From Octopus vulgaris (Eukaryota), in assembly GCA_951406725.2 (NCBI GenBank), contig OX597816.1, forward strand, positions 140,244,001 through 140,308,000: a DNA stretch of 64,000 nt, in the 5' to 3' direction. The notes under the pieces were generated by a model, which worked only from the letters and a program-made list of their open reading frames with translations, did not search any database and was not told the origin of the DNA. Shown in pieces: positions 6,563 through 61,630 of this stretch. Each line of letters starts with the position of its first letter. The first letter of the stretch is position 1. Both the position numbers and the translations under genes were made by a program.

Positions 6563-7099
6563 CAACTATGATATTGAATAAACACCTATGCTTTAAATAT
6601 ATTAGTATATATAATATGAAGTAAACTACAAGATATTTATAAATTTCCATTTCAGATGCAATTTTTTACATTAGGAATAGCGTGAAACCCATTTAGACTT
6701 CTTAATTTGTTAACATAAATCGAACGCAATAATAGACACCCCATATATCTCATTATTTATAGGAATTGTGAGTCATGTTGCTCCATCAATTTGTTTTTCA
6801 AAGTAAATGATATCTACAGTCGCTGTGCACACACATATTCTGCGATCACTGGGGGCGTACACTCCCATCCGATCTTAAAAGTCTAAGATAAGTTTATAAA
6901 TATACACTAACCTTTGCTGGCGAATTCTTGAGATATGCCAGTATACAAAAGATTAAAGCGTCTCTTGTACTAGAACAATTTGTGCATAATATAATTTTCC
7001 CTTGATAAATGAAATTAGTTAATCGATAAAAGTAAATATGTATTGAAATATGTTTTCTACGTATTAAATAGGGTTTACATTTTTTTTTTTTCATTTTAG

Positions 7100-8702
7100 C
7101 TTGGAAGATGCTCTTCGTGAAAAAGTACCTGGTGTAACAATTCCATTTTGGGATCCAACTCTTGACAGTCATCTTCCTAATCCTCGAGATTCCACTATGT
7201 GGTCAGATGAGTTAATGGGAACTATCAATGGTTTCGTCACTAAAGGGCCGTTTGCTAACTGGAAAACACCAATTGGTTATCTAGTAAGGAACGGGGGTTT
7301 CAGTACAAGGTTACCGACAAGTAGTAACATCGAAGATGTTCTCACTCGAACGAAACTCGAAGAGATCTCTGAACCAAATGCAGAAGATCGATATAACCTT
7401 GAATCCATGCATAATTCTATGCATGTTGCTATTGGAGGTCACATGGCTCGGGTACCATCATCGCCCATGGACCCAGTTTTCTGGCTACTCCACAGTTACG
7501 TAGAACTTGTCCACACGCGTTTCACTGAAAACCAAAGGCGACACAACGTTAATCCCGCAACAGATTATCCTTCGAATTATGGTTTAAATGTTTACGCTCC
7601 CAATCAAAGTATTGGTCTTATGAATTTAACCGTTGCAGAAGCATTAAAAAATACTAGTTCTTACACTCATTTCTACAAATATGACTATAGTTACTTGAAA
7701 AACTGTACTCTCGATCCAAAGGTATGTAATTCTCCATACCTAACCTGCAATAATGGTAGATGCGAGTCGAAATCTAGAAACTCAACTCGTTGCAGTACTT
7801 TAATTCCCTATCAGAATATGTTTTGTATCAACCGTAGATGCGATGTAGATGAATGGGCATTTATTCCGGTTGAAGTTATTTACGAACGACCTTTCGACAC
7901 GATGAAATTTGGAAATTTTCCTATCAAAAACGGCGTGCCGAATTTGCTGAATGATCTGTATGATGATAATCGACTTCAAAATTCCTCCGGTAATTCTAAC
8001 AGAAATAATTGTCAAATAAACAAGTGTTGTGGTCCTGCAGGAAGACTCAATGTTCGAGCTATTGGTTTAAATTATTTTGGAACCTATGAAGAGATGGCGG
8101 TGATAGATCGCAGATTAGCTGTATCATCGGATATATCTTACTTGGGAATCAGAGACCCGCAGAAAAATAACAGTGTAGTATTTTTGTCAGCGTCAGAACA
8201 ATGTGGAAGAATATGTCGTCCTTCTTGTTTAGTGCCGGGTTCAAATCCGCCGAGATACATACAATGTATAGGATTGTTGAACATAACACGTTACAACGCT
8301 ACTTTGTACGGTAAAACACTCGCAGACGCTTACATGAACGTGTGGGATTATGGAAACCAGATACGACCGAAACTGAGACATGAAAATATTCCAATAGTGT
8401 TCCATTGTGATGACAGCCAGTGGCCATTTAACAACAACAATACATCTACAACAACGACGACGACGACGACAACAACAACAACCACCACAACACTGCCGAC
8501 AACAACAACACCACTACCAACAACAACTACAACATCAACGACGACAACAACAACACCAACTCCAACGACGACAACAACAACACCAACACCAACACGACAA
8601 CCACAACACCACTACCAACAACAACAACCACAACACCAACTCCAACGACGACAACAACAACACCAACTCCAACGACTACAACAGCGACAACTACATATCG
8701 AA
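7100..8702 (+). CDS. Tyrosinase-like gene, large exon: CuB site, Cys-rich region, Thr/Pro linker
   Basis: Acceptor ttcattttAG (7098-7099). ORF 7101 has IPFWD and the CuB motif HNSMHVAIGGHM...DPVFWLLH, a Cys-rich segment, then a Thr-rich repeat. GTAAGT donor at 8703. Apparent frameshift near 8594. Confidence 0.92.
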
Positions 8703-8818
8703 GTAAGTGGCCTTTTTTTATCATATCATATGTTCATATTACATCGTGTTTGTGTAAGAGAAGGCCTAGTAGTCTGGTGATCGTAGTAGTTTAATGTAGG
8801 TGGTGGTAGTCCCAGCTG

Positions 8819-25509: not shown

Positions 25510-27290
25510 AAAGGGGTAGAGTGGACTTGTCGTGAAGAGTAGAATATCCAACGTTTCGGATCCAATCCTTTGTCAGGAGTAGATAAAAAGAGAAGTTGAA
25601 AAAAGACAGTTTTTCATCCTCTGGTTGCAACTGATAATGGATGCAGAATAACACGAGCTACTAACGTGAAACAGAAGTTATAGGAGAGGGCGTGCAGAAA
25701 GGAAGAGGAAAAGGGTGGTGGAGAGAGTAAAGGTAAGTAAATACGAGAATGTTGCAGAGAGAGAGAGGGTGGAAGGTGGATTAAAAAGGTAAAAAAAATG
25801 AATTAAGAGGAGGTGAAAGGATGAAAGGAAAAACGTTCATTCACACTTGTCGGGGACATAGAGAAGCGGGGACTGTGGTGCAAGACCATACCACACACTG
25901 ATAAATCTGTAATAGAATACTTCACAGCGTTGAAGTGGATTGCAATAGGTTGACCTGGCATACATAACATTATGTTTCTGATATGTTCGCGAAAGTGATC
26001 CCTAAGGCGTCGCCCTGTTTCTCCAATGTAAAGAGCACCACAGAGTTTGAATATGATTCGCCGAAGGGCAACAGAAGTGGTGTGTTATGTGATATTGCTT
26101 CTTGGGCCCTGTGATGGTGATAATATTGTTGATGTAGGGGCATGTGTTAAATCGTCGGTGAGAACATTTAAAAGTTCCTGGTTGTGTGGAGCTGGGAGGT
26201 GTGAAGCTTCTAACAAGAAGATTTCTAAGACTCCTATCTTTTTTAAAAGATAGGAGAGGTGATGTTGGAAAGATAGGGGCAGTTGTTGGGTTAGAAAGAA
26301 GAATGCGAAAGTTGCGGGTGTGTGCATTTTAGAGGGAGGATGGACGGGTGGTAAGTGAGAGATATTGGAATACAGTTGGCAGAAGTGCGTGAAGGCGATA
26401 GGAGAGCTGCGGAGTGGTTGATGTCTCGAGCTCGGTGGAGAGCCGGGTCGACAAATGATGGAAGATACCCTCGATTCAGAGAAAAAACTGTCGCATCGTT
26501 TTGCAATGGGATTCGAAATCCGATTCGATGCTGCAAAGTCGTCGAAGGCGAAGAAATTGAGAGGAAGGTATGGTAGATTTAATATGTTTAGGGTGAGAGG
26601 AAGAGTATTGGACATAGGAGTGGGAGTCAGTAGATTTATAGCAGACAGAGGCGGAAAGGTGGGTATTGTGTATTGTGACGGAGATGTCCAGAAAGCAAAC
26701 AGAAGTATCAGATATTGTGTGGGAGAATTCCAAGGCTAGGTGAAAGGTACTAACGAAAGAAAGAAAATTGTCGAGCTGTTGTCTGTTAAGGCTTGTGATG
26801 CCAATACAGTCATCGATGTAACAACCATACAGCTCTGGGATAGGTCCAGAGAAGTGAACAAAAATTTGCTCTTCTACATAACCTACAAAGGGTTTGGCAT
26901 AATCGGGGCCTATCCTGGTGCCCATAGCAACACCGCTGGACTGCTTATAGAATTCACCAGAGAAGGGAAAATAATTGAGTGTTAAAACGAGCTCGTCTAA
27001 GCGGAGGTAGTGTTGGGTTCAGGTACAGAACGACGGTCTAAGAAGTGTTTCAGTGCTAGTAGACCGTCGTTGTGAGGGATGACTGTGTACGAAGATTTAA
27101 TGTCCATGGTAAAGAGGAGTTTGAATTCATCAGGTGGGAAAGAAAATGCATTGAAGAGGTGTAGTGCATTGTTACTATCTTTGATATGCGAAGATAGGGC
27201 AGCGATGAGAGGGGATAAAAGTCTGTCGCGATAAGAAAATAAGAGTTCTGTGAAGCAAGTGAAAGCAGAGACAATAGAGCGGCCTACCCT
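25510..27290 (-). mobile_element. Penelope-like element (RT + GIY-YIG), degenerate, with 3' hammerhead-like motif
   Basis: MGTRIGP..YIDD..FLDI..YKSTDSHSY..SSHP..SQFLRLRRLCS RT motifs; LCGALYIGETGRRLRDHFREH GIY-YIG segment at ~25981-26046; hammerhead-like motif at 25544-25582. Confidence 0.9.
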
Positions 27291-35945: not shown

Positions 35946-38516
35946 GCACGTGCTTGTGTATGTGTATGTACGTATGTGGTGGATGCATGCGCGTCTGTCT
36001 GTGTGTATGTGTACGTGTGTAGCTTCGTAGCTTTTTAAATTCAAGGGAAATCACCTACCTTGTCATTTTATAGAGTGACGTCCCTTGCAGCACGTTACTT
36101 ATGCTTATTAATAGATATGTTTGTAATTGCTTAAATTCAAAGTTTGTAACGTGTTAATCTGACAATGGCCATAAAAATGACCCAACACTGCCAGAAGAAA
36201 ATAATTTATGAATAATTAATATGGGAATATGAATGTATTTAACTTTTTATATTGTATAATCAGTTCTCTCTTGATTGACTTTTAACTTGCTTCATTCCTA
36301 CTTACCATTTGTTATTTATAATACATCCTGTTTAGGTTGAGATATTTTAATAAAACAACAATTTATAGTGTATGGTATTTGATATTCCTGTATTTGTATA
36401 TAATAGGTGCTTTGCAGTATCTGTTCCCGTTTGTGTATTCTGACATCAACACATATATTGATATTGGTGCCGAGCTGTATTGGTTTAAGCCAGCGGCCAT
36501 TCTTTTATTCTTTCTGAGGTATATATCGATGAATCACACCCAACGAATTATATTACACAATTATCACGAAGGTGCGTGAAATAGTGGTTAGGGTATTCGG
36601 CTCATGACCTTCGGGTCGTGAGTTCGATTCTCGACGCCGAGTGTGTCCTTGAACAAAACACTTTATTTCGTACTGCTCCAATTTACTCAGCTGGCAAAAT
36701 TGAGTTGTAACTGTAATTCAAACAGGCCAACCTTGTCGCATTCTGTCTCACTCGGAATCTCCCTGAGGACTACGTTAAGCGTACACGTGTCTGTAGAGTG
36801 ATCAGCCACCCGCACGTTAATTTCTCGAGCAACTTCCCAACCACGAGGTTAGAGGTTGGGAAGGAGGTGGAGATTAGAAAATATATGCTACCTCTTTGTG
36901 CTGAAAAGTTAGGGAAAGTTGTCCCCTCTGTGTACACCTCCATTTGGATCAGTTTTGTTTCTTGCCAAACCACTAAGTTACTGTGACGTAAACAAGTCAA
37001 AACCGGTTGTCAAGCAGTGGTGGGGGACAAACACAAACACAACCACCCCTATATTTATATATATATATATATTCTTTTATCCGTTTCAGTCATTTGACTG
37101 TGGCCATGTTGGAGCACCGCCTTTAGTTGAACAAATCTATCTCAGGACACATTCTCTATAAGAAATGTTAAGTTACCGGGACGTAATCACACCTACATCG
37201 CCTGGTGGGGTGAGAAACATAGACACACAAACATATATGAAGGCATGTGTATTGTTTATTTTTGATTTTGTCTATTACACAGTATAGTAGGGTCAGTTGC
37301 GCATTAGACATCTTTTTAAGATATTTAATTTACAATATTCTACAAGATTAAAGGTATGCACGCTATTAAATAATCCTATGCTCATATTAAAACAACTGAC
37401 TGTATCTGATCTAATCTATGCTACACTCTAATCAAAGAGATAATTCTTTCCAGGAAATTGCTTCTAAGTTACTATCGCTTATCGAGTTATATAACGAAGC
37501 AAAATCTAGCAGCTTATTTAATAGCTATTTAGCTATCGATAGGTAAATATTCACGTTCTCGAATTGATTGAACCTTAATTTATTACTTCTTACCCTCTTT
37601 TAGAGATGATTTCGGATGTGTTACCTCAATTGGGCAAGATTAGTTAACTCTTATTTTTAATTATGCATGAATGAAAACTCGTGATTATACAATAGTATAA
37701 TATTATTAAAGGCAGTAAGCGGCATAATCATTAGCACACTGGACAAAGTGCTTAGCAGTATTTCTGCCGGCTTTACGTTCTGAGTTCAATTTCCGCCGAG
37801 TTCGATTTTGCCTTTCATCCTTTCAGAGTTTGTTATAATTGATTTACCATCCCTCCTCCGACATTTCACGCCTTGTTCCAATAGTAGAACACATTGTTAA
37901 GAATGCTGATCTCAGATTTAGCAGGGCTCTTAAGCTCACATTTGCGATTGAAATGAAATTATTTTCGTCGTTTTAGAGCACCGCGATCACATTACGCAAA
38001 TTTATTACTATTCCTTTTGTAACTGTGTTTCTGTTAATAAGAGCCCTTGTATGATTTTGAATAATGATGTTGTTTGGGATATGATTATATAATCTGTCAT
38101 TTAACTTGCAGTGGTTCATAGTTTTAATTCAAAATAACAGAGCTGTTTTATAATGTCTGATTTAAGCTTAACTTGGAAAGGTTTAGAATATTAGAACTTG
38201 AGACTGAATATCAGATCAGAAAAGTCATAATCTAAGTTTCTAGGTCCATGACAAATAGTGGAAATCTTCCCTATTTTATATCGAAGTGATTCACAATCGA
38301 AAGTTGTTGACCGTCTACCATCTCAAACATATATCAAGGCACACTTTTTCCCCAGAAGTTTTGTAATTTTCAGCACCCTCGACGAAGCAAAGATTTATAA
38401 TAACCATAATCTAAATAACCCCCGAAGAACTTCCCAAAAGCTTCAAATGAGCAATTCATCTAAAAATTCATTGAGAAAATAATGAAACTTGTTAGACGTA
38501 TGATAGCTCTCTCCAC

Positions 38517-38881: not shown

Positions 38882-39262
38882 ATACATCCCGTTATTCCAC
38901 CCTTTCTTCTCTGACTTTCTCTTTCTCCCCCTTTCTCTCTATTTCATGCTTTCTGTTTCCCTAGTAGACGTGCTTGTGTACACGTGTGTATGTGTGTGTG
39001 TGAACGTGTGTACGTGTGTAACTAGATACCGTTGTTAAATTCAAGGGAAATCACCTACCTTGTCATTTTATAGAGTGACGTCCCTTGCAGCACGTTACTT
39101 ATGCTTATTAATAGATATGTTTGTAATTGCTTAAATTCAAAGTTTGTAACGTGTTAATCTGACAATGGCCATAAAAATGACCCAACACTGCCAGAAGAAA
39201 ATAATTTATGAATAATTAATATGGGAATATGAATGTATTTAACTTTTTATATTGTATAATTA

Positions 39263-40101
39263 AAGTATACAAGCCATCTCAACATGGCTAACCACTAAGG
39301 GTGGGTGTTACTGTAGCTTTTAGCCCCAAGAGATCATCGTCTCCAGCTGGCTTTAGGCACACTTTCTGTGCTCTTATGGTATTTGCAAAGGGAGGTCATC
39401 CCTCTCTCGTAAACCTAAGTGTCACGCACGGACTGCAGTTTCTAGGTATTTGCCTGTCTTCGACGTACGGCAGTCACCAGTTTACGATGAAAGGGAGACC
39501 TGTTTGCAAATACTTATAGGTTTTTCTAGTAACTTCCGTCACTGATTTCGAAAAACTGTCTGCAAGCAATAATAAATCTCTGAACGAGATGTAAACAGTA
39601 ACTGCTCGACAACGTAAAGTATACTAGCCATTTCAATATGGCTAACCACTAAGGGTAGGTGTTACTGTATCTTTTAGCCCCAGGAGATCATCGTCTCTGG
39701 CTGGCTTTAGGCACACTTTCTGTGCCCTGTTCAGAGATTTATTATTGCTTGCAGACAGTTTTTCGAAATCAGTGACGGAAGTTACTAGAAAAACCTATAA
39801 GTATTTGCAAACAGGTCTCCCTTTCATCGTAAACCGGTGACTGCTGTACGCCGAAGACAGGCAAGTACCTAGAAACTGCAGTCCGTGCGTGTCACTTGGG
39901 TTTACGAGAGAGGGATGACCTCCCTTTACAAATGCCATAAGAGCACAGAAAGTGTGCCTAAAGCCAGCTGGAGACGATGATCTCCTGGGGCTAAAAGCTA
40001 CAGTAACACCCACCCTTAGAGGTTAGCCATATTGAGATGGCTAGTATACTTTACGTTGTCGAGCAGTTACTGTTTACATCTCGTTCAGAGATTTATTATT
40101 G
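39263..40101. mobile_element. Non-coding structured insertion: ~354-nt unit, ~1.3 forward copies plus ~1.05 inverted copies, 12-bp TSD
   Basis: ATTGTATAATTA at 39251-39262 and 40102-40113; absent at the paralogous site 36251-36262; unit restarts at 39617; inversion at ~39728. Confidence 0.88.
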
Positions 40102-40779
40102 ATTGTATAATTAGTTCTCTCTTTATTGACTTTTAACATGTTTCATTCCTACTTACCATTTGTTATTTATAATACATCCAGTTTAGGCTGAGAAATTTTA
40201 ATAAAACAATAATTTATATTGTATGGTATTTGATATTCCTGTATTTGTATATAATAGGTGCTTTGCAGTATCTGTTCCCGTTTGTGTATTCTGACATCAA
40301 CACATTTATTGATATTGGTGCCGAGGTGTATTGGCTCAAGCCAGCGGCCTTTCTTTTCTTCTATCTTGGATAAATATCGATGAAGCACACCCGACGAATT
40401 ATATTACACAATTATCATGAAAGCACACGAAATAGTGGTTAAGGCCATGAATTTGATTATCAGCGCTGAGTTGCGTCTGCACCAGTGAATTTTGAAAGTT
40501 TAAAGGGAAGGAGGTTGATAGTTGAAAATGTGATGAGAGTTCTAAAGTGAGGAACTGTAAAAGAGAATAAAATTGTGGATAACATTTTGTACAGAAGGAA
40601 TGCAGTACGTTAGGAAATGAAAAGACATATCCCGCAAGTTATGCTGGGGGAATTGCCTCAGAAGATCAAGGGCCATTCAAATAACAGGACAGCATAACAG
40701 TAAAGCAAGAGAAGGTTTGCTTCCAGATCATGAAAATTGATTTTCTCTATCTGCATTGTGTAAAAAGTAAACATCTTTC

Positions 40780-50857: not shown

Positions 50858-51125
50858 CTACCCCCTTCCCCATATAACTACCATTCCTTCTTCTTTTCCA
50901 TTACCACATACTCCAATTACGCTCATTAATGCCCTTTATGTTAACCAGCCAGAAGTAACAATCTTCCCTGTGATCCCTTTCTTCTATCCGGGCATAAGAG
51001 GAATGATATGCATGTACAAGAGAGGAGATTGTGTTGGTTTCGTCATGTCCTTACGAAGGAGATAACAGAAGACTGAGATATGTGGCACATTGCAGTACTC
51101 AAGTAGACCTGCCCACCAGAACAGA

Positions 51126-51506
51126 AGCAATAATAATTCTCTAAACGAGATTTAGACAGTAACTGCTCCATAACATAAGGGACATTAGCCATTTGAATGT
51201 GGCTAGGGACAGGGCAGGGCGGTGGGGGTGTTACTGATGCATTTAGCCCCAGGCGATCAACTACGTCACCAGATAGGCTGACACCATCACGGTGTCCTCT
51301 ATCCTGCAAAGGGAGATCATTCCCCGAAGTTACTGTCTAAATCTCGTTTAGAGAATTATTATTGCTGTCGAACAGATTTTCGAAATCAGTAAATGTATTT
51401 ACGTGAAAATCTATATATAAATATCCTGCACGGGAAGTTGTTCGTCGAGGAGCGGTGCCTGCCATACGTTGATGATAGGCAAATACCTGTCGTGTAAACA
51501 GCATTG

Positions 51507-51553: not shown

Positions 51554-52451
51554 GATCCATAAAGTCTCTTTACAATTCTAGAATTTTATTACAAAGGCAG
51601 TTGACAAGATATCTTAACCAGATTTGTTTTATTGTAAAAATTGTTTATTAAAGTTTTTTTTAACTGTTATTTAATAGACCTCAATATGGGCACCATTAGT
51701 TGCGCAAAGCACATCCAGACGATACTCGATTTCTTGCTATGTTCCCTGTAGGATAGCCTCATCAACGGTGGTAATGACATTACGAATCCTTTGCTTCAAG
51801 TCATCTTTGTTTGATATCTTTTACATAACCCCATAAAAAGAAGTCCAAGGCAGTGATATCTGGCGAACGTGGTGGCCATGGAATTGGCCCATCCCTTACA
51901 ATTCATCGGTCTGGAAATGTTTGATTAAAGAACTGATTAACATGCCGTTCCCAATGTGGTTGTGCACCATCTTGCTGGAAAATGATGGTTGGTTGTAAAT
52001 CAATCAGTTGTGGTGCCAAATATTCGGTCAGAAGGTCGAGGTAAACATCTGCAGTAATTGTTGCCTTGTTGAAGAAAATTGGACCAATTATTCGATTGCA
52101 CATGATTCCACACCACACATTCACTTTTGGACTATTCCGTTAAAACTCCCTAGTTACATGGGGGTGTTCTGATCCCCAGATTCTCACATTGTGTCTGTTT
52201 AATTTCCCTGAAACATGAAAAGTCGCCTCGTCACTAAAGCAAACTCGTTTGAGGAATGTTTCATCCTCATTTTATAGGGGTTCAGTGAATCAGTTCCCTT
52301 CCATCAACAGAGTATCTGAAACACAAAAATGTAATACCAATAAAAACTTTAATAAGCAATTATTAAAATAAAACAAATCTGGTTAAAATATCTCATCAAC
52401 TGTCTTTGTAATAATTTTGTTAAATTGTAAAGAGACTTTATGGACACCCTG
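51550..52451 (-). mobile_element. Tc1/mariner-superfamily DD41D (rosa-like) element, internally deleted; left arm of inverted duplication
   Basis: TIRs containing ccataaagtctctttacaatt in TA context; FSDEATF, VWCGI, FQQDGA and WPPRSPD motifs. Confidence 0.88.
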
Positions 52452-52476
52452 TATGTATGTATATATATATATATAC

Positions 52477-52564
<88 letters not shown>

Positions 52565-53622
52565 TAGAAGAAATAAGGTACTCAGAAATCTGGATGGTTT
52601 TATATTTACAGATATTTATTAATATGTCACATGTTTTTATAAATCATATATCTGAAGACTCCACTAAAGTGGACGTAAGCGCTAATATATATTTATGAAA
52701 ACATGTGACATATTAATAGATATCTGTAAATATAAAACCATCCAGATTTCTGAGTACCTTATTTCTTCTAATATATAATACCTGTACATCATCTCCAACC
52801 TTCTAATTTTATAACACAAGAAATATGCTCTAAAATTATTGGCCGCGGCCTACGGGCTAAAACATTTTTAAGGATTTAAGGATATAAGAAAAAAAAAATT
52901 TAACATATTTAATTTAACTTATTAATACCAAAAATTACTATTTAATGATTAACTATAAATTTATGTTAAGTTTGTATAGAAATATATAAATATTGAATAA
53001 TTTCTCTATTCTCCATTTCTCTATTGTGTAAAATAATGAAATTATTCTAAACTTACTTTTGTGTGCGTGTGTGTGTCTGTGTGAAAATTCTCTAAAACGT
53101 TCCTATGTATATAAAAATAACACTGGGTTTATGGTTGTAAAATAGTTAAGTATTATAAGTTCTACTCTTCCGGCAAATTTTACTTCAACGAAATCTTGAT
53201 TTATGACTCTGCCACTTAAATTGACCTTTTACACTATTCATAAAAGTTAGATTCTAGTTTTCTATTAGACTTGATAAACAAGTCTATAACTTAGAACTAA
53301 ACCCCCACCCCCCTCTTAGTAAATCAGAATAACAAAATAAAATCAATGATAAGTAGTGTCTTCCTGTGAAAAAATATCAGTTAGAACTATGATGTTGTTG
53401 ATGAAACATGTTCTTTGTCTATCTACTTATCTTTGTGATTGTGGATAATAAGAAAACTATACAAATGAATCCTTCGAATTTAACTAAATTCTATATCTTT
53501 ATCCAACTGAAGATTGCTCTACATTAAAAAATTGATGTAATATTCGCATTGCTCAATTAAATGGAGTCGCATGAAACGATCGTACTGCATTACCTCTGGA
53601 TATCCTTGTTGCTTATTTTGAT

Positions 53623-53654
<32 letters not shown>

Positions 53655-54239
53655 TATGATAGAAATGGTAAGACAACAAAAGAATGAAAGAGACCTCGAT
53701 ATTATGTAAATAGAGGAATTTATCTGTAAATATAATATGTGACAATTATTCGGTAGCCATGATAAAACTCCGTTTCGGATGTCGGGGCGGAAAGTCACGC
53801 CGCCATTTCTTCAGTTATCCGGCCATCGAAAAAAATGCTATGAAAATTACCGTTAAACAAAGGGAAATTACTGTGTGATTGACCGTTATTAAGACAAAAG
53901 AGCTAATAGAATGACCGCTAAGTGAGGGGAGGGAGTAAAGGTAAGGGGTAAAAATGTTCATTGTATTCGCGTAAGCGCGTATGTCCATGCCTACACATGC
54001 GCGCCCGCACACACACGCACAAAAAGGGTTCATGCACACGTCTATATAAGCACATGCACACAAAAAAAAGCTAAAGGCAAAATACTGAAAAATGTGTAAA
54101 AAATGTGTAAAATTAAGCAATACACATACACACACACATATATATACATATATATATATAACAAGAAACCATGATGGTCCTCTGGAAGACACTTGTCCTA
54201 AGCCACTTTGACTATTGCTCTCAGCTATGGTCACCATCC

Positions 54240-54619
<380 letters not shown>

Positions 54620-57600
54620 GGGGACCTTGCCACAGAGACACGAGGCAGATGGACAAACCATCAACACAAGGAAAAGGGATGGACCACGCACCACCTGCCC
54701 CAAAGCGGAGGTTCGCAGATGTTGTGCGTGCCACAAACCGCCAGCGTGATGTTGTCGAAAGGGCAGCTGCTGAGCAGCAATCTTTTTTGTGCATGGCACA
54801 AAAGATTGTACAGCAGCTGACCTGGCTTCATCAAACCCAAGCCCGCAGGTGGGACTACCCACTATATACAAGACCACCACAGCAAACAGACCCAGGATGG
54901 ACACCGCCGGCAACAACATACACCTCACCTCGATGCTCCTACTGAACATCAGAGGGCTGCAAACACTCAGTAACAGGACAAAAATCCCGTTCTTGAGAGA
55001 CTTTGTTGCATGCAATCAAGCCTTATGCATAGCACTTACGGAAACGCACCTGAAACCGGACACATACCGGAGTTACACATACCACAGTATGTTGTACTAC
55101 GGACCGACAGAAAAGAAAGGAGTCATGGAGGAGTTGCTATGTACATCCGTGAGGACCTCACACCCCAGGTCCTCTTGTCATACTCAAACTCGGTGTGTGA
55201 CACATTAATTGTACATATAAGGCAACTTGATGTAGTTGTGTGTGCTACATATCGCCCTCCAGATGCCCCAAGCCATGTGGGCAAGTTTGAAGACTGCCTT
55301 ATAAAAATAGAAGAAGTTCTAATCACATTAGAACAACACATAAGTGTACTTCTTATGGGAGATTTCAATCTACCCAATGTCAGATGGCCCGAGGGCCTTT
55401 CTCTCCCAGGAATGACAAGATGTGAACGAGGACAGGCGAGGTCCCTCCTGAACCTCATCAACACCCTGTACATGGAGCAGGTAATACTCCAACCAACCAG
55501 GGCAGGTAACACACTGGATCTCTGCTTCACAAATGACATGGATCTCATCCATAATGTGAAAGTGACACCGACACTACTCTCGGATCACAACATGATAGAG
55601 CTGACCATGTACGGGCCAAAAGAGAGCACGGACATGCAGCCTACAAGAAACCCTCAGAATCTTTCCAGCTTGAACTACCATAAGGCAAACTGGAAACAAA
55701 TTGAGAAAGAGATCCTCAAACAAAACTGGCCTAAATGTCTCTCCTCGCCAGACATCGACGTGAAACTTCAACAATTCATGTCTGTAATGCAAGCCATATG
55801 CTACAAATGCGTCCCAGAGAGAAAGGCCACTGTACACAAGAACAAAATCCCCAGAGAGAGGAAAATTTTAATGAGACGGCGTACAAAAATTTCAAATCGC
55901 CTAAACAAACAGATTGAAAGCAGTGAAAAGTCCCGCCTAAAAACTGTTGGAAATCGAAAAATGTCTGCAACTCTCCCATGAAAAAGAAAGAGCAGACAAA
56001 GAAGCCTGGGCTATAGACAACATAAAATCTAACCCCAGAGCTTTCTACAGGTATGCCAAAGAAACAGCTACGGTGCACTGTAGAATAGGGCCACTCCTTG
56101 AAAAGGATGGCACACTTACAGGAAAACCAATGAGGGTAAGTGAAATACTGAATGAGCAATTCAAGAGTGTTTTCACTCCACCCTTGGGCATCTCCAAATC
56201 ACCAATCCAACTGACTTCTTTACCACTGCAGATATAAAATCAGAGGCGGCGACGATAGATTACATCGATATAAAGGAAGACGATGTAATCAAGGCTATAG
56301 ATGAAATGAAAACAGACTCAGCTACTGGCCCCGATGGATTCCCGGCAATCCTCCTAAAAGCATATAAGAGAGTCCTAGCAAGACCACTGCAGTTCCTCTT
56401 TCAGAGCTTCCTTGCAGCTGGCAAACTTCCAAGAAAACTGAAGGAAGGTAAAATATGCCCCATTCATAAAGGAGGTAGCAGAGCGGAGGCCAAGAACTAC
56501 AGACCTATCTCTCTGACCTCACACATCAGCAAGGTCATGGAACGAATAGTCAGAAGGAAACTGATCACCTTCCTTGAAGAGAATGACTTGCTGCCCGACA
56601 CCCAACATGATTTCCGACCAGGGAGAAGCTGTTTAACTCAGCTCCTACAACACTATGACTGGGTGCTGAAACGGCTGCTCAACCACTCAAATGTGGAAGT
56701 GATATATCTCGACTTTGCAAAGGCCTTTGATAAAGTCGATCATGGAATGATATGTCACAAACTGCGTGATCTCAACATAGTTGGAAAACTGGGAGAATGG
56801 CTTCATCACTTTCTGAAAGATAGAAGTCAGGTGGTAGTAGCCAATGGGGCCACTTCCATTAACACGCAAATAGTGAGCGGTGTTCCGCAGGGCACTGTTC
56901 TGGGACCACTACTGTTCATAATGGCCCTCTCAGACATGCCCTCAGCCACGCAGAGAGCCACAATCACAAGTTATGCAGATGATACAAAAGTTTCACAGGC
57001 AATACAGAACCCTGAGGACACTAAACGCCTGCAATGTGAGCTGGACAAAATATACAAGTGGGCTGAAAAGAATAGCATGCAGTTCAATGCTGAAAAGTTT
57101 CAAGCTTTATACTATCAGCATGTAAAACTAAATGCAATACCCAATGAATACACTGGACCCGGAGGAATAGCAATCCCAGAGGCACAATCAGTGCGTGACC
57201 TAGGTATTTACATGAGTGATGACGCAACCTTTCGTGTACATGTTGCTAAATTGGCAATGAAATGTAGACGACTGGCCGGATGGATCCTCAGAACCTTTAG
57301 AACAAGAGAACAAGAAACCATGATGGTCCTCTGGAGGACACTTGTCCTAAGCCACTTTGACTACTGCTCTCAGATTTGGTCACCATCCAGTGTCAAGTTG
57401 ATCACAGAGCTCGAGGCGATCCAACGTAGCTACACGAAGAAGATAGCCTCTATGCAGAATGTAAGCTACTGGGAAAGACTCAAGAGATTAAAACTATATT
57501 CCTTGGAGCGTAGGCGGGAAAGATATGCCATAATATACATCTGGAAGATCCTGGAGGGACGTGTCCTAAACTTTGGCATCGAGAGTTACGTAAATGCCAG

Positions 57601-57965
57601 AACTGGGCGCCACTGCGTGGTGCCTTGGACTCCAAACTTGCCATCAAGATGTAGGACAAGATTCTGTGATAGCCTGGGCTTCCGAGGCCCACAGCTCTTC
57701 AATATCCTCCCGAAGAACCTAAGAGACCTGCATGGGGTAGATGCAGATGTCTTTAAAATGAAGCTGGATCTCTTCCTGTCAGGTGTCCCAGATGAACCAA
57801 CTTCCCGGCAGGAGGTGCAGATGAGGGCAGCTGCATCGAACTCTCTCATGCACCAAATGGCAGTTGCTCAAAAGCTTTCGTGAAGTAAAACCAAGTAGCA
57901 ACACCAAATGGCGGTGCCCCAGCATGGCCACAGCTCATAAGCTGAAACTAGAATCAATCAATCAA
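54620..57965 (+). mobile_element. CR1/L2-group LINE, near-complete ORF2 (APE + RT) with about three frameshifts, inserted in (TA)n
   Basis: LNIRGL..LTETHL, GGVAMY, YRPP, GDFN, LDL and SDH; RT ORF 56306-57883 with YRPISLTS, YLDFAKAFD, GVPQGTVLGPLLF, YADD; (AATC)n tail at ~57952. Confidence 0.93.
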
Positions 57966-57977
57966 TCACTCAATCAT

Positions 57978-58051
<74 letters not shown>

Positions 58052-58052
58052 A

Positions 58053-58083
<31 letters not shown>

Positions 58084-58808
58084 TGCTTAATTTTACACAT
58101 TTTTTACACATTTTTCAGTATTTTGCCTTTAGCTTTTTTTTGTGTGCATGTGCTTATATAGACGTGTGCATGAACCCTTTTTGTGCGTGTGTGTGCGGGC
58201 GCGCATGTGTAGGTATGGACATACGCGCTTACGCGAATACAATGAACATTTTTACCCCTTACCTTTACTCCCTCCCCTCACTTAGCGGTCATTCTATTAG
58301 CTCTTTTGTCTTAATAACGGTCAATCACACAGTAATTTCCCTTTGTTTAACGGTAATTTTCATAGCATTTTTTCGATGGCCGGATAACTGAAGAAATGGC
58401 GGCGTGACTTTCCGCCCCGACATCCGAAACGGAATTTTATCATGGCTACCGAATAATTGTCACATATTATATTTACAGATAAATTCCTCTATTTACATAA
58501 TATCGAGGTATCTTTCATTCTTTTGTTGTCTTACCATTTCTATCAATATATATATATACATATATATATATAATCAAAATAAGCAACAAGGATATCCAGA
58601 GGTAATGCAGTACGATCGTTTCATGCGACTCCATTTAATTGAGCAATGCGAATATTACATCAATTTTTTAATGTAGAGCAATCTTCAGTTGGATAAAGAT
58701 ATAGAATTTAGTTAAATTCGAAGGATTCATTTGTATAGTTTTCTTATTATCCACAATCACAAAGATAAGTAGATAGACAAAGAACATGTTTCATCAACAA
58801 CATCATAG

Positions 58809-59217
58809 GCGCAGGAGTGGCTGTGTGGTAAGTAGCTTGCTAACCAACCACATGGTTCCGGGTTCAGTCCCACTGCGTGGCATGTTGGGCAAGTGTCTTC
58901 TGCTATAGCCCCGGGCCGACCAATGCCTTGTGAGTGGATTTGGTAGACGGAAACTGAAAGAAGCCTGTCGTATATATGTATATATATATATATGTATGTG
59001 TGTGTGTTTGTGTGTCTGTTTGTCCCCCTAGCATTGCTTGACAACCGATGCTGGTGTGTTTACGTCCCCGTCACTTAGCGGTTCGGCAAAAAGAGACCGA
59101 TAGAATAAGTACTGAGCTTACAAAAAGAATAAGTCCCGGGGTCGAGTTGCTCGACTAAAGGCGGTGCTCCAGCATGGCCGCAGTCAAATGACTGAAACAA
59201 GTAAAAGAGTAAAGAGT
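58809..59217 (+). mobile_element. SINE family 3, full length, inserted into right arm
   Basis: tRNA-like head; ATAG duplicated at 58805-58808 and 59218-59221; empty site in the left arm near 53390. Confidence 0.92.
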
Positions 59218-60045
59218 ATAGTTCTAACTGATATTTTTTCACAAGAAGACACTACTTATCATTGATTTTATTTTGTTATTCTGATTTACTAAGAGGGGGG
59301 TGGGGGTTTATTCTAAGTTATAGACTTGTTCATCAAGTCTAATAGAAAACTAGAATCTAACTTTTATGAATAGTGTAAAAGGTCAATTTAAGTGGCAGAG
59401 TCATAAATCAAGATTTCGTTGAAGTAAAATTTGCCGGAAGAGTAGAACTTATAATACTTAACTATTTTACAACCATAAACCCAGTGTTATTTTTATATAC
59501 ATAGGAACGTTTTAGAGAATTTTCACACAGACACACACACGCACACAAAAGTAAGTTTAGAATAATTTCATTATTTTACACAATAGAGAAATGGAGAATA
59601 GAGAAATTATTCAATATTTATATATTTCTATACAAACTTAACATAAATTTAAAGTTAATTATTAAATAGTAATTTTTGGTATTAATAAGTTAAATTAAAT
59701 ATGTTAAATTTTTTTTTTTCTTATATCCTTAAATCCTTAAAAATGTTTTAGCCCGTAGGCCGCGGCCAATAATTTTAGAGCATATTTCTTGTGTTATAAA
59801 ATTAGAAGGTTTGGAGATGATGTACAGGTATTATATATTAGAAGAAATAAGGTACTCAGAAATCTGGATGGTTTTATATTTACAGATATCTATTAATATG
59901 TCACATGTTTTCATAAATCATATATTAGCGCTTACGTCCACTTTAGTGGAGTCTTCAGATATATGATTTATAAAAACATGTGACATATTAATAAATATCT
60001 GTAAATACAAAACCATCCAGATTTCTGAGTACCTTATTTCTTCTA

Positions 60046-60098
<53 letters not shown>

Positions 60099-60101
<3 letters not shown>

Positions 60102-61022
60102 GGTGTCCATAAAGTCTCTTTACAATTTAACAAAATTATTACAAAGACAGTTGATGAGATATTTTAACCAGATTTGTTTTATTTTAATAATTGCTTATTA
60201 AAGTTTTTATTGGTATTACATTTTTGTGTTTCAGATACTCTGTTGATGGAAGGGAACTGATTCACTGAACCCCTATAAAATGAGGATGAAACATTCCTCA
60301 AACGAGTTTGCTTTAGTGACGAGGCGACTTTTCATGTTTCAGGGAAATTAAACAGACACAATGTGAGAATCTGGGGATCAGAACACCCCCATGTGACTAG
60401 GGAGCTTCAACGGGATAGTCCAAAAGTGAATGTGTGGTGTGGAATCATATGCAATCGAATAATTGGTCCATTTTTCTTCAACAAGGCAACAAGTACTGCA
60501 GATGTTTACCTCGACCTTCTGACCGAATATTTGGCACCACAACTGATTGATTTACAACCAACCATCATTTTCCAGCAAGATGGTGCACAACCACATTGGG
60601 GACGGCATGTTCATCAGTTCCTTAATCAAACATTTCCAGAGCGATGAATTGTAAGGGATGGGCCAATTCCATGGCCACCACGTTCGCCAGATATCACTAC
60701 CTTGGACTTCTTTTTATGGGGTTATGTAAAAGATATCGTGTATCAAACAAAGATACGGGACATTGCTGACTTGAAGCAAAGGATTCGTAATGTCATTACC
60801 ACCGTTGATGAGGCTATCCTACAGGGAACATAGCAAGAAATCGAGTATCGTCTGGATGTGCTTCGCGCAATTAATGGTGCCCATATTGAGGTCTATTAAA
60901 TAACAGTTAAAAAAAACTTTAATAAACAATTTTTACAATAAAACAAATCTGGTTAAGATATCTTGTCAACTGCCTTTGTAATAAAATTTTAGAATTGTAA
61001 AGAGACTTTATGGGATCCCCTG
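60099..61022 (+). mobile_element. DD41D (rosa-like) element, right-arm copy
   Basis: TIRs CAGGGTGTCCATAAAGTCTC.../...GAGACTTTATGGGATCCCCTG; 41 codons between the QQD and LDFF aspartates (including one in-frame stop). Confidence 0.9.

Positions 61023-61630
<608 letters not shown>

Follow-up and report, generated by a model that had tools for sequence, protein, structure and literature searches.

A hammerhead-bearing, non-coding tandem repeat of Octopus vulgaris with two fixed insertion ends, a retrozyme probably copied by a Penelope-like protein

Results

The insertion and its surroundings

The window, by which we mean the whole 64,000-nt stretch of Octopus vulgaris DNA that was analysed, contains an insertion of 839 bp at positions 39263-40101, delimited from the sequence and its self-alignment and flanked by an exact 12-mer at 39251 and 40102 that has no third occurrence within the window (Table 1). 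A paralogous site at 36251 is without the insert and carries the target 12-mer once, in 11/12 letters, and the flanks of the insert align across this empty site with 95.9% similarity over 268 nt and 91.5% over 343 nt. The insert is built of a 354-nt repeat unit with a GC content of 44%, present as 1.32 forward copies followed by 1.05 inverted copies, and self-alignment placed the starts of these two arms at different points of the unit. In all of these respects the sequence agreed with an earlier note on the same DNA, and the helices which that note had named were likewise present. The arms were 92-96% similar to each other, each about 3% away from the family majority, with three alleles common to both. 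The earlier view of the unit as highly structured and without a credible ORF also held, with folding z-scores of -4.4 and -5.2, 0 of 100 shuffles as stable, and a longest stop-to-stop frame in the insert of 75 aa. A tRNA was looked for in the insert and none was found.

Two other features of the window are a 570-aa single-exon frame at 7068-8780, which we take by eye to be of the tyrosinase type, and a large interrupted inverted duplication at 51557-61467, whose arms are 95-99% similar and which encloses an element of the LINE type whose frames are those of an endonuclease and a reverse transcriptase (54974-57883).

Table 1. Coordinates of the insertion, its parts, and related features in the window
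Feature	Position	Strand	Remarks
Empty paralogous site, single target copy	36251..36262	+	11/12 letters
Left target-site duplication copy, 12 bp	39251..39262	+	Exact 12-mer, elsewhere only at 40102
First arm, 1.32 units	39263..39728	-	RNA-sense strand -; outer boundary at site B, the inner of the fixed sites (left end of L001, RNA position 304)
Type I hammerhead motif, first arm	39419..39477	-	39463-39457 form the core U3-C4-G5-A6-A7-G8-A9; cleavage predicted between 39431 and 39430
Second (inverted) arm, 1.05 units	39729..40101	+	RNA-sense strand +; outer boundary at site A, the outer of the fixed sites (right end of L001, RNA position 352-354)
Long rod extending hammerhead stem I	39801..39935	+	Mirror of the earlier-noted rod 39379-39513
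Type I hammerhead motif, second arm	39837..39895	+	
Tail of ~48 nt between fixed end sites B and A	40054..40101	+	At one outer end only
Right target-site duplication copy, 12 bp	40102..40113	+	
Sister subfamily V copy, inverted	51125..51488		~72-78% similar; starts at site A

A type I hammerhead motif in each arm

The earlier note had reported no recognisable ribozyme. On the strand opposite to the one it had described, however, each arm was found to contain one type I hammerhead motif, in which stem I is followed by a core of seven letters, stem II closed by a loop of six letters, GAAA, a stem III of two pairs with a palindromic tetraloop, the cleavage triplet, and the second strand of stem I. 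In the second arm, stem I occupies 39837-39850/39884-39895 and encloses the core CCGAAGA at 39851-39857 (+), which carries the change U4C, stem II at 39858-39871 with a C-A mismatch at its base, GAAA at 39872-39875, and a 2-bp stem III with the loop TGCA, the predicted cut falling after GTC at 39883. This arrangement agrees with the canonical metazoan type I hammerheads in the available part of PMC4209133. The motif was present in 32 of 33 pattern matches in family U loci, the remaining match being unrelated, and matches occurred in one polarity of the unit only.

An alignment of 24 sequences picked by the core pattern was drawn from four subfamilies (U, 8; V, 5; W, 6; Y, 5), with rows containing insertions omitted and one W row not used. 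Twelve columns were invariant, eight of them belonging to the core (G5, A6, A9, G12, A13, A14, A15.1, and U16.1, with positions after the consensus in PMC3088659); the invariance of these core columns is partly built in by the choice of rows, whereas the stems were not. The other four were two letters of loop II, one letter of stem II, and the bulge of stem I. In 15 of the 20 named pairs both partners vary, 92.9% of cells were paired as against 23-51% in slid controls, and the covariation score was reached by 0 of 500 shuffles; because the rows are related, these are not counts of independent events. C3-G8 was replaced by U3-A8 in four rows, the loop of stem III was self-complementary in 95.8% of cells, and the 10.1-11.1 pair was unpaired in 20 of the 24 rows. 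Covariation, whose absence the earlier note would have taken as speaking against its reading, was strong, and the compensatory changes seen between subfamilies indicate that RNA structure has been under selection.

The minimum-energy fold of the isolated 63-nt motif was not a hammerhead and did not beat shuffles (z -0.84). Because both strands of the unit folded better than shuffles, folding energy is a weak guide to strand, and the choice of strand rests on the hammerhead and the polarity of the insertion ends. Rfam returned four chance matches and no ribozyme in the insert region; it gave no hammerhead in canonical sister copies either, so the blank at the window copy says little. Twister, pistol, hairpin, and HDV cores were sought by eye and none was seen. 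On sequence grounds, we concluded that the ribozyme missed earlier is an ordinary hammerhead motif and that the hoped-for new ribozyme fold was not borne out.

Family size and subfamilies

Searches of the genome (2.8 Gb, 227 contigs) returned 3676 first-look candidates for the unit, of which 40 were scored and found to be 93-97% similar. An exact 22-mer of the unit matched 921 times (control 0), and a wider core pattern gave 1382 exact matches (controls 0). Related subfamilies with units of 353-357 nt were also found: V, with 1814 candidates and one copy in the window; W, with 3021 candidates; Y, with 751 exact matches; Z, which is 75% similar to the window unit over 256 nt and whose copies are mostly 96-100% similar to their reference unit; and a more distant subfamily at L132. 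One locus holds an array of 10 units, 99.4% similar to each other, with a single 12-bp duplication, and the longest stop-to-stop frame in the array stretch examined was 100 aa. Two family Z insertions about 1 Mb apart (L232 and L237) have the same inner junction in opposite orientation and are perhaps one duplicated insertion.

Contigs of four sequencing runs, three presumed to be RNA and one other, cover the unit piecewise, in pieces that cannot show strand, ends, or expression. A different repeat at L018:2640-2810 holds about 60 nt of the unit (the stem before site B) and terminates in a hairpin followed by CTAGT, which we take to resemble Helitron-type ends; its junction with the unit also occurs in contigs of all four runs. 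Our literature searches turned up no description of the family, although the supplements of PMC7229834 and bioRxiv 2026.07.22.740005, Dfam, or Repbase may list it. A squid genome paper counts 235 hammerheads, without detail in its available part (PMC6962438).

Core variants and predicted activity

Both window copies are non-canonical, with U4C and the C-A mismatch at 10.1-11.1 and, in one of them, also C3U, and the first two of these features place them outside the strict core consensus of PMC3088659. Exact cores of family U numbered 262 genome-wide. In a hand count of the first 100 listed, the largest class was U4C, with 39, followed by 37 with U3 (36 of them U3-A8), 17 canonical cores (C3-U4-G8), 6 with both U3 and C4, and 1 other; the window arms fall in the U4C lineage. 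The available text of PMC3088659 describes U4C as lowering activity in vitro considerably without abolishing it, yet as sufficient in a viroid, and U3-A8 as a known active covariation. Given that the 10-unit array combines U3-A8 cores with a G-C pair at 10.1-11.1, with the hammerhead in 10/10 units, and that the family Z core is fully canonical, the family likely has active members, while U4C and the 10.1-11.1 mismatch predict that the window copy likely cuts poorly or slowly. Core position 3, which is not a CpG site, is U in one arm and C in the other in three insertions (window 39463; contig 3 near 46526534; L028).

Insertion ends and the two arms

On the hammerhead strand, outer 3' ends fell in two places about 48 nt apart, at positions ~300-311 (site B) and 349-354 (site A). 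Family U was represented by 27 loci chosen by similarity, with 16 inversions, and by 24 insertions taken in order along contig 1, with 18 inversions, one of which had already been counted in the similarity sample. For the 33 inversions of this family, 29 had one end in each interval, 3 came within ~16 nt of that, and 1 was not assigned. The pattern recurred in family V (18 of 21 inversions with one end each at A and B, 3 not assigned) and in family Z (5 of 5, of which two perhaps represent a single duplicated insertion), so that overall 55 of 59 inverted insertions had one end at A and one at B, 4 were not assigned, and none used the same site twice. Non-inverted copies in the contig 1 sample ended at B (6 of 6). 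Target duplications were 10-14 bp long, mostly 12, in non-microsatellite targets; many copies lie in TA runs, and no duplication was found at 6 of the 27 similarity-chosen loci, all of them non-inverted. The earlier note had read the different starts of the two arms as circular permutation, but free permutation did not hold as a general feature, the outer ends of copies being fixed at two sites. Fixed ends were also what that note had named as a result against its proposal, and they apply in part, to the outer ends; the inner junctions are variable.

In the contig 1 sample, with one degraded locus dropped, 27 of 40 arms crossed the predicted cut site and 8 of 40 were longer than one unit. With this many arms continuing across the predicted cut site, the RNA that was copied was either circular or an uncleaved multimer, and these two would explain the read-through equally well. 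Cleaved linear monomers were rejected as template, as arm ends did not pile up at the cut site; by hand count a single arm of the 40 ended within 3 nt of it, and did so on its second passage through the unit. At subfamily-diagnostic sites the arms of one insertion agreed much more often than copies from different loci did, with 16 of 139 comparisons discordant for inverted pairs and 5 of 46 for tandem pairs, against 38.8% between loci; a single locus (L026) was exceptional, with arms from two different templates and 7 of 11 sites discordant.

Penelope-like elements in the same genome

Penelope-like elements are numerous in the genome, which yielded 6136 GIY-YIG candidates and 12440 candidates for a reverse-transcriptase fragment. 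A profile scan of 82 Penelope-type loci found no autonomous partner with matching ends among them, the only matches being neighbouring retrozyme copies in L079 and L097/L101 and one match at E 0.82. We considered L097 as the autonomous partner and rejected it as a chance neighbour, since in each of the other 39 copies scored its element stops ~600 bp short of the unit homolog. No reverse-transcriptase and GIY-YIG frame joined to the unit was found in the loci checked. Penelope fragments near retrozyme copies at L030, L040, L168, L182, L187, and L228 were read letter by letter and are separate insertions; further ones lie at L035, L206, and L250. Beyond site A, arms exceeding a unit in length and 10-unit arrays pass directly into the next unit, so that a frame could not be accommodated there.

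An autonomous Penelope-like family in this genome showed a pairing of tail and no tail in 2 of 2 visible inversions, along with 28 single ends without a tail. A young Penelope-like family (L097:1830-4980), with copies ~100% similar over 1 kb, inserts in TA runs and has an AC-rich tail and a small hammerhead-like motif, also with C at core position 4. An abundant one (L091:906-4587) has a 781-aa frame and an extra upstream frame of ~360 aa, and the pattern used found no hammerhead-like motif in it. The window itself contains a Penelope-type reverse transcriptase fragment at 26476-27018 (-), which as a query led to family frames of up to ~1200 aa elsewhere.

Discussion

Comparison with known systems

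Metazoan non-LTR retrozymes are characterised by a non-coding tandem unit of 150-450 bp (350-390 bp in mussels), a GC content below 50%, and target duplications of more than 4 bp (Cervera and de la Pena 2020, PMC7229834; Li, Clavereau and Pollet, bioRxiv 2026.07.22.740005; further features from PMC7761336; all in their available parts). The octopus family resembles them in its 354-nt tandem unit of 44% GC with arrays of up to 10 units, in the type I hammerhead in each unit with its short stem III and palindromic loop, in lacking coding capacity in both insert and array, and in its 12-bp duplication. It differs in that most copies are tandem-plus-inverted with two fixed ends, and in the U4C core and unpaired 10.1-11.1 of the window lineage. 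The available portions of PMC7229834 and bioRxiv 2026.07.22.740005 do not describe a two-site end rule for retrozymes.

The structure of the copies also recalls endonuclease-bearing Penelope-like elements, such as Poseidon of Anolis (PMC11167929) and Penelope of Adineta (PMC3846280; see also PMC8557442). As excerpted from these sources, such elements share with the octopus unit a partial tandem joined to an inverted truncated copy, a tail that one end may carry, a pair of neighbouring internal start sites, AT-rich targets, and a hammerhead, in their case in the terminal repeat. Unlike autonomous elements of this kind, the unit has no reverse transcriptase or GIY-YIG frame, its tail is ~48 nt rather than 30-40, its duplication is mostly 12 bp rather than the 8-10 bp of the Adineta examples (PMC3846280), and its hammerhead is full-stemmed rather than of the minimal pLTR form. 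Non-autonomous Chlamys elements such as MRC1 are, like the unit, non-coding, arranged head-to-tail, and presumably moved by a Penelope-like protein, but they share 3' sequence with a known autonomous family and belong to a clade without canonical hammerheads (PMC8557442, available part).

Proposed mechanism and alternatives

The hammerhead motif, together with two fixed ends that point to probable Penelope-like copying, places the repeat in a known class, the animal retrozymes. We consider it very probable that this 354-nt non-coding tandem repeat with its type I hammerhead motif is an animal non-LTR retrozyme, likely reverse-transcribed into AT-rich DNA by a Penelope-like protein acting in trans; that the enzyme is Penelope-like is likely, judging by the end signature. 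The earlier idea of a structured unit moved in trans keeps its mobile, non-coding retrozyme architecture, its Penelope-type inversion, and a fitting circular or multimeric template, and loses its unrecognised fold to the hammerhead. [quoted passage not shown] According to the corresponding parts of PMC8557442 and PMC3846280, Penelope-like elements typically show partial tandems, a truncated copy in inverted orientation, and a one-sided tail.

Tandem copies would be transcribed on the hammerhead strand, and the multimers would be cut and closed into circles where the core is intact. A Penelope-like protein would then nick both target strands ~12 bp apart and prime cDNA from both nicks, at site A of a circular or uncleaved multimeric RNA from one and at site B from the other, and the two cDNAs would be joined at variable inner points to give the tandem-plus-inverted product. 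Since the window core is predicted to be slow, the lineage to which it belongs probably expanded through uncleaved multimers or through circles that formed slowly. A narrower version, in which a single dimer of a Penelope-like protein would have primed the two target strands at two fixed positions on one circular RNA and the insertions would be the record of this, is put forward tentatively and is, in our estimation, possible though rather doubtful.

We consider it improbable that the unit amounts to no more than a terminal repeat (pLTR plus tail) belonging to an autonomous Penelope-like element, as the earlier note had allowed, and that the copies are heavily truncated insertions of such an element. 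The tail, inversion, and duplication are as in such elements (PMC8557442 and PMC3846280, in part), retrozymes have been reported as pLTR-derived (bioRxiv 2026.07.22.740005, in part), and the Penelope families covered are only part of those in the genome; against this, the next unit begins directly beyond site A in long arms and 10-unit arrays, no attached coding element was found in the loci checked, and the nearby Penelope fragments that were read are separate insertions. The similarity and periodic variants of the array units do suggest local exchange after insertion, and weakened cores make up the biggest class in the first 100 family U cores listed, as might be expected of a tandem satellite amplified at the DNA level, by unequal exchange or rolling circle of DNA, in which the hammerhead is a relic. 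We nevertheless regard such a satellite as highly unlikely, for most copies are dispersed, with 10-14-bp duplications, fixed outer and variable inner ends, and the compensatory changes speak for selection on RNA structure. Least probable of all is a viroid-like RNA that replicates from RNA to RNA and is occasionally integrated, or that carries a new ribozyme class: the size, the rod-like fold, the hammerhead, and the better-than-shuffled folding of both strands resemble viroid-like circles, but the hammerhead matches are confined to one polarity, the conserved core is accounted for by a known motif, and the copies behave like ordinary genomic repeat subfamilies.

Implications for retrozyme mobilisation

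Returning to the retrozyme reading, the element class itself is already known, and Penelope-like proteins have been proposed as the movers of animal retrozymes from co-occurrence and sequence kinship (PMC7229834 and bioRxiv 2026.07.22.740005, in their available parts). What this family adds is evidence from insertion ends, a two-site tail signature with a clear and strict one-of-each rule, and a set of natural ribozyme variants (canonical, U3-A8, and U4C) in one backbone. If the insertions do record a dimer acting on the same circular RNA, then the one-of-each rule, the alleles shared between arms, and the passage of arms across the cut site would qualify this 354-nt RNA as a minimal substrate showing how retrozymes are mobilised, and the spread of the U4C lineage would mean that the ribozyme is partly dispensable. 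With the two-site end signature and the core variants combined in so short an RNA, both the Penelope link and the role of cleavage become directly testable.
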